In this document: positions 1,158 through 30,319 of the stretch, piece by piece
Layout: every line of letters starts with the position of its first letter
Position numbering within the stretch: the first letter of the stretch is position 1
Sequence record: OR352933.1
Source: Escherichia phage AV102
DNA: 43,345 nt
Reading direction: 5' to 3' (one strand)
The notes under the pieces: model-generated
The model's database searches: none
What the model was told of the DNA's origin: nothing
Seen by the model: the letters and a program-made list of their open reading frames with translations, nothing else
Position numbers and translations under genes: made by a program

Positions 1158-2678
1158 CTACCGCTGCGCTGATACCGTCCAGCCAAAGTAGTGGTCCCCC
1201 GATACATTATTACGAACACGTATAATAATGTTCTGACCAGATACCTCAAACCAGAACGGGGCGTTGATATCTGTAGTAGGAGTTACCTGAACGTAGCGAC
1301 CTTGTAAGGCGCGCGATATACCGGTAGGTACAGTAACCGAGTTGGTCCCTGAAGCCATCTTAGCTGCCCCAGTATTATAAGTAACATACTGCGGGCAGTT
1401 CTCGATGGTGACAGCTGCATCGCTAGCATTACTTATTGCACCGTTTACATTACCTCGGGCATCTACGTTAACGAACTTAACACCACTACCAATACCGTCA
1501 GATATAAAGATCCCGTAACCTTGATTATTAAACTCGAATACAGGAGTTGCACCAGCCTTAACGTTTGTGAAGTTCACATTCTGCACCCCGGCCCCTAACT
1601 CTATTCCGTGCTTCTGTCCGCGGGTTGCCATACTGTTAGCATTACAACTGATGTTACTGAAGTTAATGCCTCCTACACTATAACCTGTGAGCAGTATCCC
1701 TGAGCCTTTATTGTTAACACAGGTCAGTCCGTTAAAGTTCAGGTTCTCAAGCCCACCATTCTCAGCATTAAGGTGTACTCCAGGATGTAATGCAGTCGTC
1801 CCACAAGAACTTCCCCAGCAACCGTTGAAGTTCAGGTCTGAGACACTGGCTCCCCCCATAGGGGCAAACATTAACCCACACTCCTTACAGGTATCGCCTA
1901 AGATAGCAGTGTAGAAACTCCCCCTACACTTAGTAGCACCAGACGGTAGCCAGGCGTAACCATACTTCATTCCCAAACAGTCGATGTTAGACGCATAGAC
2001 GCCAGAGGCATTGACCTCCTTAACCCCACATCCTTTACCACCTCCTGACAGTACTAGGTTCTGCAGGAACACATCCTGAACTACAGCCGAAGAGGTATCG
2101 CCTATCACAATAACATCTTCGCTAGTAGTTGCACCGTTAATGGTACAGTTGTTTACGCGGTAAATAAACTGCTGGGGACCGCCGTGCATCTTAAGGAAGT
2201 TATAGAAGGGACCATCTACACGAACATTCTCCAGGCATAAGTTGTATCCGTTAGTCCACGTAATGAAGTCGCCGCGCGTATGTGTCCCATCCACAATAAT
2301 TTGTAGGTCACGGATATGAACATTATTAATATTGGTAGATGCTGTACCGATGGCTGCAAAAGGCACGTTAATTGCAGAGTATAAAAGTACAGTGCTGCCC
2401 TGTCCTGCTCCCACCAAATGCACATTATTATAGAATGTAAGAGAGCCCTTTAAAGTCCATGTACCAGAAGGTACAGTTACGGCCCCTCCTCCTAGGCTGT
2501 GAGCGTGATTAATCGCGGCTTGGAAGGCAGCTCGTGAGTCAGTATTACCTGGAATAGCTCCGAAGTCTGCAACACTAATGTTATCCATTAGTTTAGACTC
2601 CATGGTACGTTCAACTGCACCTGTTGCAGACGCTTTCCAGTTAACTAACCATGTAGCCACTTTGGTAAGATTTAGCAT
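1158..2678 (-). CDS. Tailspike / receptor-binding protein with pectate-lyase-like beta-helix (probable capsule or polysaccharide depolymerase)
   Basis: 506 aa. N-terminal DFGAIPGNTDSRAAFQAAINHA...GGAVTVPSGTW resembles the pectate lyase superfamily signature; Gly/Asn/Ser-rich repetitive body with many Cys; last gene of the genome. Confidence 0.75.
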   Translation of the reverse strand: MLNLTKVATWLVNWKASATGAVERTMESKLMDNISVADFGAIPGNTDSRAAFQAAINHAHSLGGGAVTVPSGTWTLKGSLTFYNNVHLVGAGQGSTVLLYSAINVPFAAIGTASTNINNVHIRDLQIIVDGTHTRGDFITWTNGYNLCLENVRVDGPFYNFLKMHGGPQQFIYRVNNCTINGATTSEDVIVIGDTSSAVVQDVFLQNLVLSGGGKGCGVKEVNASGVYASNIDCLGMKYGYAWLPSGATKCRGSFYTAILGDTCKECGLMFAPMGGASVSDLNFNGCWGSSCGTTALHPGVHLNAENGGLENLNFNGLTCVNNKGSGILLTGYSVGGINFSNISCNANSMATRGQKHGIELGAGVQNVNFTNVKAGATPVFEFNNQGYGIFISDGIGSGVKFVNVDARGNVNGAISNASDAAVTIENCPQYVTYNTGAAKMASGTNSVTVPTGISRALQGRYVQVTPTTDINAPFWFEVSGQNIIIRVRNNVSGDHYFGWTVSAQR

Positions 2679-2687
2679 TCTGTTCCC

Positions 2688-3287
2688 TTATCTAGGTATA
2701 GCGGCAACTGCCGCTTGCGTTGATTTGAATTCATTCCCTATAGCCTTAGATTCCCACATACGGCGCTCCCATAGGCCCCAGCATACCTTATTACGCTGCC
2801 CGTTAATATACTGAGAGCAGTCAAAGGTCCAGCGGTTGCCACCCTTGTACACCCAACCGGTGCCTGGGGATTTCTGCTGGTACTTGCTAATGTAACGCCA
2901 GTTCAGCACAGCCTTTCCAGCCGCTGCGTAATCTAGGTTTTTGAGGTGCCGTTTCACAGCGCTGCCATTGAAGCCGGCTACGCCTACGTTATAGATGAAG
3001 TCTACAGACCCTATCAGAGCCACGTCAGAGAGCTGCATAGGAAGCCCGTCAAGAGCCTTAGCATGTTCCCCTGCTGATTCTATCAGTTGCTTCTGACAGT
3101 CGCTCAGCGTGGCTCTCTGACCCATTTTGACACCCTTTGTCTCCCCGTAGCAGATCGTAGGGATACCGGCACTGTCCTTGTAGGCTGTAAGACTCAAACC
3201 TTCATTGTGCTGGACTACCTCAGTAATAGCCCCGCCAAGCATAGTAGCCCCGGCGAGTGCAGCTATAACCCTAGTCCTTAAACTCAT
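2688..3287 (-). CDS. Endolysin, T4-lysozyme-like muramidase (GH24) with signal-arrest-release N-terminus
   Basis: Catalytic E-x8-D-x5-T context (NEGLSLTAYKDSAGIPTICYGET); Gly/Ala-rich weakly hydrophobic N-terminus RVIAALAGATMLGGAIT. Start moved to the internal Met at 3287 (RBS AAGGGGG upstream); the track ORF extends to 3311. Confidence 0.8.
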   Translation of the reverse strand: MSLRTRVIAALAGATMLGGAITEVVQHNEGLSLTAYKDSAGIPTICYGETKGVKMGQRATLSDCQKQLIESAGEHAKALDGLPMQLSDVALIGSVDFIYNVGVAGFNGSAVKRHLKNLDYAAAGKAVLNWRYISKYQQKSPGTGWVYKGGNRWTFDCSQYINGQRNKVCWGLWERRMWESKAIGNEFKSTQAAVAAIPR

Positions 3288-3522
3288 ATTTAATAGCCCC
3301 CTTACGTGCATGCTCCTCTAGGAGCTTGTATGTGCGCCATTTATAGTACGCATTCCACGCCAGGGTTAGCACTGCACACACCGTCGCAGTGATGAAGCTG
3401 ATAACACTCCAGTCCCAACTCCTTAGCTCTGCCAACCAACCTCCTGAGACTGTAGCACCAGTAACAGCTGCTCCTGCCCGGGTAGCGAGGTCTGCCCCAA
3501 CTACATCTCCCACTTTAATCAT
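3271..3522 (-). CDS. Holin, pinholin-like
   Basis: 83 aa; Gly/Ala-rich weak first TMD, strongly hydrophobic second TMD (WSVISFITATVCAVLTLAW), charged C-terminus; sits directly upstream of the SAR endolysin. Confidence 0.55.
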   Translation of the reverse strand: MIKVGDVVGADLATRAGAAVTGATVSGGWLAELRSWDWSVISFITATVCAVLTLAWNAYYKWRTYKLLEEHARKGAIKYEFKD

Positions 3523-3919
3523 CCTGCTGACCCTTCTTCCTAAATAGCTTACGAATCACCAGAATGGCCACTAGGAAGACCAAAGGGATGCTGGCCCCTG
3601 CTAATCCGGCGAGAATAAGACTATAACTATCGTTGTTAACCACCTGTAGGCGCTCTGCCTGGATTGTGCCTGTACTAATAGTCTGCACTTGCTTCTTGCT
3701 AGAAGTATCCAGTGTACCTACGTTAGAATCCTGTACATCGGTTTTGTTGGTGGTGCTGGAGTCCACCTTATTATTCAGCCCGAGCATCTGCTTAGTATTC
3801 TCAGCGCCAACCTGAGCAGATACTTCCGGCTTAGAACCAACTAAGCCGGTCAGTGCAGAGGTCGCTGAGCAACCAGTCAGAGTAACCGCGAGCAGTAACC
3901 CAGCGACCAGTTTGCGCAT
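3515..3919 (-). CDS. Candidate unimolecular spanin (lipoprotein with C-terminal transmembrane anchor)
   Basis: 134 aa; N-terminal signal with lipobox LTGC; Ser/Thr/Gln-rich periplasmic body; C-terminal TMD SLILAGLAGASIPLVFLVAILVI followed by RKLFRKKGQQDD; within the lysis cassette. Confidence 0.55.
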   Translation of the reverse strand: MRKLVAGLLLAVTLTGCSATSALTGLVGSKPEVSAQVGAENTKQMLGLNNKVDSSTTNKTDVQDSNVGTLDTSSKKQVQTISTGTIQAERLQVVNNDSYSLILAGLAGASIPLVFLVAILVIRKLFRKKGQQDD

Positions 3920-4101
3920 TAGCTAGCCGCCTTCACCGCTGCAATAGCAGCTTCCAGTGCGGCAACCTTAGTGTCGAACGCTACACCAGTCTGGGCTACG
4001 TTCTGAGGCTGTGTAAGGATTGCATACAGGTCCTTACCCAGAATGTTCAGTTGACGCAGCAGCTCCTGCTGCTGTGCTTGTGTCGCCTTAGCAATTGCCA
4101 T
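3919..4101 (-). CDS. Hypothetical protein (60 aa, Ala/Gln-rich helical)
   Basis: ORF abuts neighbours in the compact late operon; no recognisable motif. Confidence 0.4.
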   Translation of the reverse strand: MAIAKATQAQQQELLRQLNILGKDLYAILTQPQNVAQTGVAFDTKVAALEAAIAAVKAAS

Positions 4102-4114
4102 AGTGATTCTCCTA

Positions 4115-4492
4115 TTATGCTGCAGCAGCGTTAGTCGCTGCTACGAAGGCCGACTGTAGGGCCGTGAATGAGTTGTCGAAGTCTGTACCGGAACCCTCAC
4201 CTAGCGGCATACCTGTACCAGTGAGCGCTACGTAGCCGGTCTTGCTAAGCTGGAACAGCATGGAGAACAGTCGCGCCTGCAGGGTGCCATCATCCTTAAA
4301 GGATTCCCCGACAGCTGTAGCCGGGTAGCCTTGGGACTCCATGTAGGTAAAGAACGCGTTGAATTTATCCAGCGCACCCGTACCCACAAAGCCGACATTG
4401 TAGTCAGGGGCCACCTCTTTCTCAAGGTTTTGGCTCTTGCCTACAATGGCGTACTGTACATCCGCAGACTTAGCCGCGATGATTGATGCCAT
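4115..4492 (-). CDS. Hypothetical protein (125 aa)
   Basis: ORF immediately downstream of the large terminase, 1-nt overlap; no recognisable motif. Confidence 0.5.
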   Translation of the reverse strand: MASIIAAKSADVQYAIVGKSQNLEKEVAPDYNVGFVGTGALDKFNAFFTYMESQGYPATAVGESFKDDGTLQARLFSMLFQLSKTGYVALTGTGMPLGEGSGTDFDNSFTALQSAFVAATNAAAA

Positions 4493-6348
4493 TATCGTCT
4501 TCCTCTATGTTGTTTGCCTCTACCCCGACTTTGCAGCCGTGCAGCGACTCCCCGCAACTGTTTCTGGACCATACCCTGCGCCCAGTCCAACGGGTTATTG
4601 ATGAATGCTAGTGCCTGCTTCTCAGACTCTCGTGCAGCTACCACTTTCTCGTCTTCTACTAGATGCCCGTTCAGTACTGCGACCATCATAGCGATGGCGT
4701 CTGCTCGGTCATCCTTAGCCAAGCTACCCCGGTCATACGTAATACCTGCGAGCTGTGCGAACGCAGAGTACAACCAGCGACGATCTCGGGAGTATCGCAT
4801 ACAAGTCCCAATATCATCGTGAATAGCACGCTCATGCACCACTAGGCGGTGTCGTCGAGTTACTGGGCTGATTGTGTCTATAATACGACGTTCTTTCTGC
4901 GTGGTGTTGTTAATGTCACGCACACCAATACCAGCAAGGCGACGCTCCCTCAGGCGGTTCAGAATCAACATAGACACAGTACCGTGCCCCATGTTACTCT
5001 CCACCACCATGTCAGAGATATCCAACTCTACGCACAAATCAATGAGCTTATCGATATTCTCAGTGCTTACGCCTCCTTGGAAACCCCCAACGGAGAACAA
5101 GTGAATGTATGAGTTTGCAGCCCCACCAGCAGCATAGGAGACTTCATCCCCACCACAACCAGCTGGGTCCACCACCAGCACCTTGTGCTGATACGGCAAG
5201 TGCATATCTCCGTAGAATGCCGGGAAGTACATCTGCTGACCCATAATCCCCTCATGCTCGTGCTGGTATAAGTACCGGCGGTCCGCAATATAGGAGAAGG
5301 TCTCTGGGGAGGAATCCTGGCTACCAGAGTAAACCAGCATATCCGAAAGCTTGATACGTGTACGCATCTGGTCGGACAGGGTTGTGTCGAGCATGTACTG
5401 CAGCTGGAAGCCTTCCGGACCAAAGTCCAGCTCCTTCTCAATCAGCGCATCCTCGTCATAGCGCCCGGGGTCCGTGCTCTCCCCTAGCGTCCCGTCGACA
5501 CCGAAGCCGGTGCGTTTATAGCCGCGCTCAATAAGCTCCAGGATATAAGGAGCAAGTGTACTTCCATATCGCTCTTCCATTTCAACAGACGGAATGCGCC
5601 CAGGCCACACGCGGACCTCGAAGCCACGTCCCGGCAGTGTTTTATAGATACTGTCCTTGGTCTGTGGTGTACCCAGGTACAGCGTATCCCCGTGCGTACA
5701 GATGGCCGCGAAGTCTTTAGAAATCGTCAGCAGCTGCTCGCGCTGGGTTTGCGTTAAGCCGTTCTTGGTGGTCTCGATATCGTCCGGAATCAGTAGGTCC
5801 GCACGCTTCCCCTGTAGGGATGCAGTGATACCTACACAGGCTACGCTGGCGGACTTATCCAGAGGTTTCAGGTCACAGTGTACGTCGTAACCTTCAAAGG
5901 AGGTTCGGTCCCCACGTGTAGGGTCAGCCTTCAAGTAGCACAGCAGCGGCCAGGTTTCCAGCATCCGAATGATTAAGTTTGCTACATCGGAAGCCTGCTT
6001 CTCAGCACCCGACACAATCAGGATACGGCAGGATTGGTCCTGGATGAGCCTCCAGACAGCGTAGAGCGCAGCTAGTGTAGACTTAGCCTCACCACGCTGT
6101 GCAGCCACCATGCGCTTCCTAGGGCCCTTCTGCATATACTCCGCAATGTCGGCTTGCATGTCCGTGAGCGTAAAGCCTAGGAAGCGCATGCCTATATATG
6201 CGAACTCCCTGAAATTACTGAGGGTAGCCGCCATCATCATGGCGATATCCTCGCGCTCCTCTTTGGGAATACTGCGCGGGTTCGCATTATAACCAGTAAG
6301 TTTCTGGTTGAGCATGCGCAGTCTTCGCGCAGTCTTCACCGATACCAT
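4492..6348 (-). CDS. Terminase large subunit (DNA maturase B)
   Basis: 618 aa; size and position after the small terminase match T7 gp19-like arrangement. Confidence 0.8.
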   Translation of the reverse strand: MVSVKTARRLRMLNQKLTGYNANPRSIPKEEREDIAMMMAATLSNFREFAYIGMRFLGFTLTDMQADIAEYMQKGPRKRMVAAQRGEAKSTLAALYAVWRLIQDQSCRILIVSGAEKQASDVANLIIRMLETWPLLCYLKADPTRGDRTSFEGYDVHCDLKPLDKSASVACVGITASLQGKRADLLIPDDIETTKNGLTQTQREQLLTISKDFAAICTHGDTLYLGTPQTKDSIYKTLPGRGFEVRVWPGRIPSVEMEERYGSTLAPYILELIERGYKRTGFGVDGTLGESTDPGRYDEDALIEKELDFGPEGFQLQYMLDTTLSDQMRTRIKLSDMLVYSGSQDSSPETFSYIADRRYLYQHEHEGIMGQQMYFPAFYGDMHLPYQHKVLVVDPAGCGGDEVSYAAGGAANSYIHLFSVGGFQGGVSTENIDKLIDLCVELDISDMVVESNMGHGTVSMLILNRLRERRLAGIGVRDINNTTQKERRIIDTISPVTRRHRLVVHERAIHDDIGTCMRYSRDRRWLYSAFAQLAGITYDRGSLAKDDRADAIAMMVAVLNGHLVEDEKVVAARESEKQALAFINNPLDWAQGMVQKQLRGVAARLQSRGRGKQHRGRR

Positions 6349-27302: not shown

Positions 27303-28227
27303 TGTCTGGGTGCTCCTGTATCCACTGTATGTGCTGTTTATGGTACTCGTGCAGCGAATGCACCCAGTCACGTAGACTGGGAGTAGTCAACAGTGACATC
27401 AGATACTGATAGGCAGAATCTGATTGGGAGCGTCTCAGCCACAGGCATTCTGCCTCTGCGAGTACGTCTTGGTTGTTTCTAGCATAAGCCGCTACAACGA
27501 ACTCTGCGGCGTCTTGCTCTGAGGTAATAGGGTAGATAGCATCAAAGGCCGTTCGCTTGCCACAGGGCTTCCCATCAAGCAACGTGATGCCTTTGACGTT
27601 ATCTGCGTCGTCTCCTGCTAGCATCTGCCACCAGAAGAACTTCAACCCGTGTGCTCGTACAGGCATAGCCTGGGTGTCATCCCACTTAATCCATCCGAAG
27701 GGATCCTCCAGTGCAGGCCACACTGTACCGGTTGAGATATCAAACCGGGCCATAGGGCTGAGCCAGGAGTCCTTGTCCTGTGACATTAGTATACCGCGCT
27801 CACCGAAAGCGTATGAGTCCATTATGAATAGATCATCCGCCTCGAAGAAGTCGCTACTAACTACTTGGATACCTTGCTCAGAATACTGGTCCGGATTATC
27901 AATCAGGTGCCGCTTCAAAGGGGCCTTCAGTGGTAGCTCCTGCCGGTTAGCTCGCTGCCCCTGGTACGGCTTAGCTGTGGGTAGGTGCCAACGCAGACAC
28001 TTAGCACAACCAGCAGGAGTCAGATACGCCACTGCTTCCGAGCAGCCCACCAAGAACATGTCCTCAAGCACTAGCTGATAGAAGCGACGTATCGCCGTAT
28101 CCAAACGTTTCACTGTAGCGGCGGCTTTGTACACGCAAAAATCTGCGTCATATAGCAGAATCTTCCCAGAGTTCTGCGGGGCTAGCTGCTCCCCGAGCTG
28201 GGACAAGTCAACCCCGTTGATAATCAT
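27259..28227 (-). CDS. 5'-3' exonuclease (T7 gp6-like, FEN family)
   Basis: 322 aa; N-terminal ILLYDADFCVYKAA resembles the T7 gene 6 exonuclease N-terminus with acidic metal ligands. Confidence 0.75.
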   Translation of the reverse strand: MIINGVDLSQLGEQLAPQNSGKILLYDADFCVYKAAATVKRLDTAIRRFYQLVLEDMFLVGCSEAVAYLTPAGCAKCLRWHLPTAKPYQGQRANRQELPLKAPLKRHLIDNPDQYSEQGIQVVSSDFFEADDLFIMDSYAFGERGILMSQDKDSWLSPMARFDISTGTVWPALEDPFGWIKWDDTQAMPVRAHGLKFFWWQMLAGDDADNVKGITLLDGKPCGKRTAFDAIYPITSEQDAAEFVVAAYARNNQDVLAEAECLWLRRSQSDSAYQYLMSLLTTPSLRDWVHSLHEYHKQHIQWIQEHPDNGEDVCEGNEPAGD

Positions 28228-28385
28228 TAGCGCCCCGTAATATCGCGGGCCTTCTTGTCGGCCCAGTTAACCCAACGCTCCGCCCACTTCGCCTTGCTGA
28301 GCTTATCGCCCAGGTAGCAGAGTCCCGCTAGGGGGATTAGTGGGAGAATCAAAGCTACGTAAATTGCACGAGATACGTAAAGCAT
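28227..28385 (-). CDS. Small hydrophobic protein (52 aa), not in the ORF track
   Basis: My translation: MLYVSRAIYVALILPLIPLAGLCYLGDKLSKAKWAERWVNWADKKARDITGR; stop overlaps the exonuclease ATG (TAATG). Confidence 0.4.
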   Translation of the reverse strand: MLYVSRAIYVALILPLIPLAGLCYLGDKLSKAKWAERWVNWADKKARDITGR

Positions 28386-28387
28386 TC

Positions 28388-28552
28388 TTAAATCTCCAAA
28401 TTAGCTGTGAAAGCGCGTATTGCACGAGTCAGCACAGACACGCCCTTTGCGCCCCCTGCCACACTAAGCGCCAGCGCCATTAACGTCAAACCAATTGCAA
28501 GTAACGCTAGTGCGGGAAATAGGAATATGTAGGATATAACTTTACGCATCAT
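28388..28552 (-). CDS. Small membrane protein (54 aa), not in the ORF track
   Basis: My translation: MMRKVISYIFLFPALALLAIGLTLMALALSVAGGAKGVSVLTRAIRAFTANLEI; start overlaps the upstream stop (ATGA). Confidence 0.4.
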   Translation of the reverse strand: MMRKVISYIFLFPALALLAIGLTLMALALSVAGGAKGVSVLTRAIRAFTANLEI

Positions 28553-29233: not shown

Positions 29234-30103
29234 TTAGGCTTGCGGTGCAGCAGGCGCTGCGGGGGCTGCAGGAGCCACTGGCGCTGCCGGTGCTACAGGG
29301 GCACTTGGTGCTGCTGGTGCTACTGGAGCACTCGGTGCCGCTGGTGCAGTGGGCGCAGCCGGGGCTGCGGGGGCTGCAGGAGCAGCCGGGGCCTGCATAG
29401 ACTGAGGACTCGGAACCGAACCAGCATTCAGCATAATATCCAACGCACTGCCTGGGAAGTCTACGGCCTTGTACATGTCCTCCTGAATCCAGTTTTTACT
29501 CTTACCATCATCCTTGGTACCTTCGATATACAAGCTATCCCAGGTTTCTTTGGTAGGGTTGTTCCACAAGAACAGCTTAATCTCGGAAGCATCCAGCTCA
29601 GGCATTTTAATCGGCTCACCGGTATTCGGGTCGAACTTCGGAATCGGACGGATTGCCGCGAGGTCTACAATGTTGGACTTCTTACCCGCTGCGCTGGTGT
29701 GCTCATCCACCTGGAATACAAATGCTTGTCCCAGTCGCTGTGCAGCATGCTTAATACTGCCATCGTAGTTGAGCTTGTCGAAGAACTTCTTGAAGCCCGC
29801 ACGCTCAAAGTTGCTAATAGTCATCGGATACGGACGGATACGCTTCACCTCACCGTTCGGGCCGTACACCACAATCCCGATGCGAACGTTCGCCGCGGCA
29901 GGCTTACCGGTAGGCTTACCACCTTTAGTCGGCAGGCGCTTACCAATTTCCACGTACTCAGTAAAGTAACCGTAGTACTCACCCTTCGGCAGAAGCACAT
30001 CCTCATACGCACCACCCTGGGCGGTTTCGGTCATATCAACTTCTTGGGTTTCAATCGCAGCAGCAACCAGGGAGTTCAGAGTGTCCAGTGCATTCATAGT
30101 CAT
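29234..30103 (-). CDS. Hypothetical protein with C-terminal Pro-Ala repeat tail; possibly a DNA-binding or SSB-like protein by position
   Basis: 289 aa; last ~50 residues are PAAPAAPAAP-type repeats ending in PQA and stop; position between replication genes. Confidence 0.55.
   Translation of the reverse strand: MTMNALDTLNSLVAAAIETQEVDMTETAQGGAYEDVLLPKGEYYGYFTEYVEIGKRLPTKGGKPTGKPAAANVRIGIVVYGPNGEVKRIRPYPMTISNFERAGFKKFFDKLNYDGSIKHAAQRLGQAFVFQVDEHTSAAGKKSNIVDLAAIRPIPKFDPNTGEPIKMPELDASEIKLFLWNNPTKETWDSLYIEGTKDDGKSKNWIQEDMYKAVDFPGSALDIMLNAGSVPSPQSMQAPAAPAAPAAPAAPTAPAAPSAPVAPAAPSAPVAPAAPVAPAAPAAPAAPQA
29237..29395 (-). repeat. Tandem GCN/CCN-rich nucleotide repeats encoding the Pro-Ala tail
   Basis: Repeated gctgcaggagc / ggtgctgctggtgc units on the plus strand within the CDS 3' end. 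Confidence 0.7.
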
Positions 30104-30154: not shown

Positions 30155-30319
30155 TTAGCGTTTTGAAGCGACGGCGGCGGCAACGAACACCAGGATTATA
30201 GCTAGCGCAGCAGGACCCCAGAACGGGAGCAGCACCCACAGCCAAGACCAGGCGATAACTCCGGTCAGTTTCAGGGTTACGAAGATAAGGCCTAGTACAG
30301 AACAGATTCCCATTTTCAT
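30155..30319 (-). CDS. Small two-TMD membrane protein (54 aa), not in the ORF track
   Basis: My translation: MKMGICSVLGLIFVTLKLTGVIAWSWLWVLLPFWGPAALAIILVFVAAAVASKR; AGGAG 6 nt upstream. Confidence 0.45.
   Translation of the reverse strand: MKMGICSVLGLIFVTLKLTGVIAWSWLWVLLPFWGPAALAIILVFVAAAVASKR

Follow-up and report, generated by a model that had tools for sequence, protein, structure and literature searches.

A predicted unimolecular spanin, holin and SAR endolysin lysis cassette of the KP34-like type in Escherichia phage AV102

The DNA analyzed here, i.e., a stretch of 43,345 nt from Escherichia phage AV102 (hereafter referred to as the window), is coded entirely on the minus strand and contains, at positions 2688 - 3919, a late lysis cassette of three consecutive, overlapping ORFs, all on the minus strand, in agreement with the original prediction for this region. 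In the order of reading, these ORFs represent genes for a putative unimolecular spanin (u-spanin) of 134 aa (3515..3919), a probable pinholin of 83 aa (3271..3522) and a putative SAR (signal-anchor-release) endolysin of 199 aa with a GH24 lysozyme domain (2688..3287). The end of the spanin gene shares 8 nt with the beginning of the holin gene (ATGATTAA), and with the endolysin start placed at 3287, 17 nt are common to the holin and endolysin genes. On their upstream side, the three genes are preceded by the two terminase genes (small and large) and by two small, conserved genes without a known function; a gene for a tailspike with a pectate-lyase fold follows downstream. A megablast search with positions 2400 - 4600 yielded 249 phage records, nearly all of them Klebsiella or (less commonly) Escherichia phages of the genus Drulisvirus (KP34-like Autographiviridae); the best match was Escherichia phage Minorna, with 98.1% DNA identity over 100% of the query, in which the three genes are annotated as unimolecular spanin, holin and endolysin. 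The genome represented by the window is that of a Drulisvirus, i.e., a typical KP34-like phage. An NCBIfam search covering all three lysis proteins placed none of them above a family threshold.

The 134-aa protein had been predicted to combine an N-terminal lipobox with a C-terminal transmembrane helix, and both elements were found. Its N-terminus (MRKLVAGLLLAVTLTGC) comprises basic residues, a hydrophobic core and the lipobox LTGC, which forms the end of a predicted lipoprotein signal peptide (residues 1 - 17; 3869..3919, minus strand) recognized by motif scans and by the Pfam model LPAM_1 (20.3 bits, just above the cutoff of 20). The lipoprotein signal, in whose absence the original prediction was to be given up, is thus present. 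The putative lipid-attachment residue Cys17 (codon at 3869..3871, minus strand) is the sole cysteine of the protein, which fits the reported absence of periplasmic cysteines in u-spanins. Asp at position +2 represents the enterobacterial signal for retention in the inner membrane; as the residue at +2 after Cys17 is Ser rather than Asp, the spanin lacks this retention signal. At the other end of the protein, residues ~99 - 122 are strongly hydrophobic, with mean Kyte-Doolittle (KD) values of up to 2.53, and are followed by RKLFRKKGQQDD, including a basic, presumably cytoplasmic tail (RKLFRKK). Hydropathy, AlphaFold modeling and conservation among relatives all point to a transmembrane helix here (residues ~100 - 122; 3554..3622, minus strand); in the AlphaFold model, residues 98 - 133 are helical (pLDDT of 78 - 91). 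The AlphaFold monomer also shows an N-terminal helix reaching to residue 26, while residues 37 - 77 have pLDDT values below 50, and because of these low values the model does not reproduce the beta-rich periplasmic pattern (one short helix and then several beta strands) described for the gp11 family.

Homology searches agreed with the proposed assignment of this protein as a unimolecular spanin. The protein matched the "Rz-like spanin" family phrog_1804 from end to end (E = 2e-50), and an alignment with gp11 of phage T1, the experimentally tested prototype of the u-spanins, showed 50 identical residues out of 125 (40%) with 93% of the protein covered (E = 7e-26); these values place it within the family of gp11 u-spanins, for which PMC6139136 sets a minimum of 40% both for identity and for the share of the length covered. 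Moreover, it is 100% identical to the Minorna protein QBP07055, which is annotated as "unimolecular spanin". A tblastn search with the spanin retrieved 1,140 phage records, approx. 250 of which represent near-identical Drulisvirus sequences; the remaining records are mostly T1-like siphophages with 38 - 50% identity, many of them with a u-spanin annotation. A HMMER scan of 1.8 billion cluster representatives identified 49 representatives of the spanin family, and 38 diverse relatives (25 - 50% identity) from this set were used for an alignment. In this alignment all sequences share the lipid-attachment Cys, the motif AQVGAENTKQ shows almost no variation, and a lipobox can be recognized in 37 of the 38 relatives, with Asp at +2 in none of these 37. 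A C-terminal hydrophobic helix with a Lys/Arg tail is found in 36 of the 38 relatives (the two relatives without the helix look truncated or frameshifted). With an invariant Cys and a helix in 36 of 38 relatives, the dual-anchor topology is a conserved property of the spanin family rather than a chance feature of one protein. Judged by its sequence, the 134-aa protein is a member of the T1 gp11 unimolecular-spanin family.

As the 134-aa protein is a small phage lipoprotein, one could also hypothesize that it acts in superinfection exclusion or receptor blocking, like Cor or Llp, and not in lysis; its match to the NCBIfam model spanin2_3, which remained sub-threshold (19 bits vs. a cutoff of 80), would be in line with such a role. 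This explanation is at odds with the full-length homology to T1 gp11, as T1 gene 11 complements the lysis defect of lambda Rz/Rz1 (PMC6139136). It also conflicts with the overlap between the 134-aa gene and the holin gene inside a lysis cassette, and with the conservation of a dual-anchor topology that is missing from exclusion lipoproteins. In addition, lysis of Gram-negative cells normally needs a spanin, and the genome offers no other spanin candidate. Overall, we consider an exclusion function of this lipoprotein very improbable.

The second finding on which the original prediction was to be given up was a separate, embedded two-component spanin pair, and the window was therefore scanned in all six frames. 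A strict scan of the whole window for lipoprotein signals detected only the spanin ORF itself and, on the non-coding strand, a single ORF of 38 aa. A relaxed lipobox scan in six frames added only Cys-rich out-of-frame ORFs, which either lie on the non-coding strand or are embedded in large genes for structural proteins or replication. Other ORFs with a hydrophobic helix on the coding strand include three proteins of 52 - 54 aa with a single transmembrane domain (TMD) in the early/middle region, none of which is adjoined by a lipoprotein ORF, as well as a number of large enzymes, structural proteins and two short ORFs (47 aa and 70 aa) in the terminal region without annotation that follows the tailspike. 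No ORF resembling an i-spanin was found beside a lipoprotein ORF among the coding-strand ORFs of the window with a hydrophobic helix. A two-component spanin is absent from the window. The view that a hidden, embedded Rz/Rz1-like pair performs the outer-membrane step, with the 134-aa protein as an accessory, gained no supporting point from the six-frame scans of the whole window; it is contradicted both by the strict and relaxed lipobox scans, which gave only junk ORFs, and by the lack of an adjoining lipoprotein ORF next to the small (52 - 54 aa) membrane ORFs of the coding strand, and we give it almost no credence.

The 83-aa product of the second gene (3271..3522, minus strand) matched phrog_20 (E = 8e-16) and showed 34% identity to the T1 holin gp13 over 35 residues representing the TMD and the C-terminal tail (E = 2e-6). 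Residues 27 - 66 also matched the Pfam model PF04971 ("P21 holin S"); with a score of 26.6 bits (E = 6e-6), this match is marginal, as it lies 0.6 bits above the cutoff of 26, and a PF04971 match is precomputed for most relatives of the holin. A profile comparison by hhalign aligned residues 29 - 65 with residues 27 - 63 of S21, the pinholin of phage 21 (E = 3e-4; probability of only 39%), a region of S21 that extends from the last part of TMD1 across the loop and TMD2 into the first part of the tail; no homology between S21 TMD1 and the first segment of the holin was detectable by hhalign. The holin gene adjoins and overlaps the SAR endolysin gene. This pairing, together with the homologies, suggests that the holin is likely pinholin-like, as originally proposed.

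The number of TMDs in the holin had been given as two, with a Gly/Ala-rich first TMD. One TMD is clear: residues ~38 - 58 (3349..3411, minus strand) have a mean KD of 1.81, AlphaFold places a helix at residues 38 - 73 (pLDDT of about 80), and many residues of this main TMD are invariant in the holin family. The other is plausible; it would be formed by a Gly/Ala/Ser/Thr-rich N-terminal segment (residues 8 - 31; 3430..3501, minus strand) with 67% small residues and a mean KD of 1.06, which represents, by its composition, a candidate SAR-like TMD1. If this segment is left out of the membrane, the holin would be a canonical single-TMD (class III) holin that forms large holes, and the SAR endolysin would be freed by the depolarization that is common to any holin. 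Published annotations of Drulisvirus holins with one TMD (PMC4411677; PMC6554615) are consistent with this alternative, and so are the hydropathy profile, in which residues 38 - 58 are the sole segment that passes the usual threshold, the conserved charged pair D11/R15 within the N-terminal segment, and the hhalign match to S21, which is centered on TMD2. On the other hand, TMD1 of S21, which has been established by experiment, stays at or below 0.7 on the KD scale and is thus less hydrophobic than residues 8 - 31 of the holin studied here; in view of this comparison, predictor calls of "one TMD" are not decisive. The match to the Pfam P21 holin model also argues against a class III holin, as do an N-terminal helix of 22 residues (residues 4 - 25) that AlphaFold predicts with low confidence only, and the classification of such cassettes as pinholin plus SAR endolysin by Kongari et al. 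(2018; PMC6139136).

A dual-start (antiholin) motif was also considered. The candidate motif, M1-I-K-V4 with a GTG codon at position 4, was rejected, as it is not conserved; codon 4 encodes Pro, Leu, Ile or Ala in relatives. While this lack of conservation would agree with a single-TMD holin, the dual-start motif is typical of S21 and is not obligatory for pinholins. We regard a single-TMD holin with large holes as rather unlikely. A more specific version of the pinholin reading holds that the protein is a two-TMD pinholin of the S21 type with D11/R15 inside the membrane, and that the cassette is a permuted form of the T1 module that was exchanged between siphoviruses and T7-like podoviruses; this combined proposal is a tentative one, which may be correct but for which we would not claim an even chance.

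The third protein contains a PF00959 lysozyme domain (E = 8e-21), and the closest proteins with a solved structure are the phage 21 enzyme R21 (3hde, 3hdf) and RrrD of an E. coli prophage (4zpu), with E = 4e-10 for the best hits (3hde and 4zpu) and R21 (3hde) at the top. The N-terminus of the endolysin (MSLRTRVIAALAGATMLGGAITEVV), which had been predicted to be of the SAR type, consists of a basic MSLRTR followed by VIAALAGATMLGGAITEVV, with a mean KD of 1.79 and 53% Gly/Ala/Ser/Thr, as compared to a mean KD of 2.11 and 58% Gly/Ala/Ser/Thr for the N-terminal helix of R21. The putative SAR domain (residues 1 - 25; 3213..3287, minus strand) is thus delimited by its composition and by alignment to the SAR segment of R21; the alignment between the two proteins begins inside this segment (SLRTRVIAALAGAT vs. 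SLRKAVAAAIGGGA). The catalytic triad E-x8-D-x5-T is intact (E29-x8-D38-x5-T44 in the numbering of the 199-aa protein; EGLSLTAYKDSAGIPT; 3156..3203, minus strand), and R21 shows the same pattern (EGVSYIPYKDIVGVWT). An alignment with T1 gp12 (28% identity, E = 8e-14) extends from residue 1. These comparisons identify the protein as a homologue of the SAR endolysin R21, with the SAR segment included, and the prediction for the N-terminus is borne out to that extent; the signal-anchor would presumably remain uncleaved.

The longest ORF for the endolysin comprises 207 aa and starts at the ATG at 3311, but this start was rejected in favor of the ATG at 3287 (199 aa). A Shine-Dalgarno sequence (AAGGGGG) is located 8 nt upstream of the latter, the endolysin of Minorna is annotated with the equivalent start, and T1 gp12 aligns residue for residue from its own Met1 (MSLKNNV vs. 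MSLRTRV of the 199-aa protein). On these three grounds, the ATG at 3287 most likely represents the true start. The Minorna announcement (PMC6554615) mentions two TMDs in the endolysin. The only hydrophobic stretch other than the SAR segment begins at residues ~80 - 91 (199-aa numbering; mean KD of ~1.3), and as this weak stretch lies inside the lysozyme domain, we did not accept it as a second TMD.

Overall, the three genes very probably represent the late lysis cassette of a KP34-like podophage, with products that work as spanin, holin and SAR endolysin. The cassette would belong to the late operon transcript, in which it follows the terminase genes, and its three genes may be translationally coupled through their overlaps. 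The endolysin would be exported by the Sec system, and its SAR helix, which is weakly hydrophobic, would keep it inactive on the periplasmic side of the inner membrane; the holin would accumulate in the inner membrane, trigger at a set time and depolarize the membrane. Depolarization would most likely proceed through small "pinholes" formed by the holin, as release of the endolysin needs no large hole. The SAR helix would then exit the bilayer, and the lysozyme would refold into its active form and degrade the peptidoglycan. The spanin would be anchored in the inner membrane by its C-terminal helix, with its single chain passing through the meshes of the peptidoglycan and so across the periplasm; after the loss of the wall, the protein could move laterally, oligomerize and remove the outer membrane, probably by fusion with the inner membrane. 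We infer all functional steps of this mechanism from the homologues T1 gp11, R21 and S21; for u-spanins in general, PMC6139136 noted that physiological and biochemical data on the mode of action were lacking at that time.

The original interpretation of this locus is thus supported as correct, and it is not new, as a cassette with spanin, holin and SAR endolysin has already been published as a trait of the KP34-like genus. In section 3.7 of PMC4411677, Eriksson et al. (2015) described the KP34-like cassette as characteristic of the genus, with the spanin gene followed by those for the holin and the endolysin; they reported a u-spanin and an N-terminal SAR domain of the endolysin, and inferred that the holins are pinholins. 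Kongari et al. (2018; PMC6139136, Table 5) assigned proteins of KP34, F19, NTUH-K2044-K1-1 and phiKDA1 to the T1 gp11 u-spanin family, and nearly all members of this family were found beside a pinholin and a SAR endolysin (PMC6139136). The same cassette layout was described for Phimunavirus (Buttimer et al. 2018; PMC6115819), and the Minorna announcement (PMC6554615) reported the spanin, holin and SAR endolysin cassette in a phage with an identical spanin. Beyond correct annotation, the cassette matters little, and it confirms that this is a typical KP34-like phage. A Drulisvirus that infects E. coli would represent a convenient genetic system for studies on the mechanism of the u-spanin family; genetic access to u-spanins is already offered by phages Minorna and T1.

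Among known systems, phiKMV shows the same architecture at the level of the Autographiviridae and the same pinholin/SAR strategy, with the pinholin gp44 and the SAR endolysin gp45 (PMC4411677). Unlike the cassette described here, it carries a two-component spanin (Rz/Rz1) and the order holin, endolysin, spanin; the sequence similarity between the phiKMV and KP34-like cassettes was reported to be low (PMC4411677). The likeness to phage 21 is found in the endolysin, which aligns with R21 over the SAR segment and has the same catalytic triad, and in the holin, with its PF04971 match and its alignment to part of S21. Conversely, phage 21 encodes an embedded two-component Rz/Rz1 spanin where a single protein is found here, and the dual-start antiholin arrangement of S21 is absent from the holin described here. 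In phage T1, all three proteins of the cassette, i.e., the gp13 holin, the gp12 SAR endolysin and the gp11 u-spanin, are homologous to the proteins described here, and gp11 has the same type of lipobox and the same dual-anchor topology. The genes stand in a permuted order, as the spanin gene comes first here and last in T1; T1 is a siphovirus, whereas the phage analyzed here is a T7-like podovirus, and its endolysin is ~37 residues longer than T1 gp12. Klebsiella phages of the genus Drulisvirus encode spanins with 94 - 97% identity and holins with ~90% identity to those found here, although most of these phages have a downstream tailspike module that differs from the one found here. The closest system is that of Minorna, with 100% identity for the spanin, 98.8% for the holin and 98.1% at the DNA level; Minorna and other Drulisvirus phages share with the phage analyzed here both the gene order u-spanin, holin, SAR endolysin and the position of the cassette after the terminase genes.

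At the genome end, the endolysin gene of the lysis cassette is directly adjoined by a 506-aa tailspike or depolymerase gene with a pectate-lyase fold (1158..2678, minus strand; PF12708). DNA comparison with phage records showed that the DNA of this tailspike gene is shared only with Escherichia phage Minorna, the best match to the cassette region. In other Drulisvirus phages, the DNA matches start only at approx. position 2676-2764 of the window, i.e., at or within the endolysin gene's 3' end. This pattern suggests that the receptor-binding module has been exchanged, with the breakpoint in this place.

The endolysin is approx. 35 residues longer than R21, the SAR endolysin of phage 21 and its best solved relative. 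The final 50-55 residues (2688..2860, minus strand), which include Trp and Cys, were not covered by the alignments to solved lysozymes and possibly represent an insertion or a C-terminal extension.

Two conserved genes, encoding proteins of 60 aa (3919..4101; phrog_7375) and 125 aa (4115..4492; phrog_7128), are placed on the minus strand between the large terminase gene and the spanin gene; the start of the latter overlaps the stop of the 60-aa gene (TAATG). Inspection of the two protein sequences by eye found no obvious hydrophobic stretch in either.

The window is probably a complete phage genome in reverse orientation; its sequence revealed no long direct terminal repeat. Three minus-strand ORFs of 52-54 aa in the early/middle region (28227..28385, 28388..28552 and 30155..30319), located apart from the lysis cassette, each encode a single strongly hydrophobic helix (mean Kyte-Doolittle hydropathy of 2.2-2.5) and could possibly represent small membrane proteins. 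Also on the minus strand, a 289-aa ORF (29234..30103) carries approx. 55 residues of Ala-Pro-Ala-type tripeptide repeats at its C-terminus, encoded by a 9-nt unit that is repeated in tandem at least 14 times (29244-29401).

When the cassette (2688..3919) was compared to the lysis region of phage T1 (42878..43982), all three lysis proteins were homologous to T1 proteins, i.e., gp13 (holin), gp12 (SAR endolysin) and gp11 (u-spanin). Gene order, on the other hand, was permuted, as the window presents spanin, holin and endolysin while T1 presents holin, endolysin and spanin. Homology of all three proteins combined with a permuted gene order points to a lysis module that Drexlerviridae and Slopekvirinae would have in common, in rearranged form.
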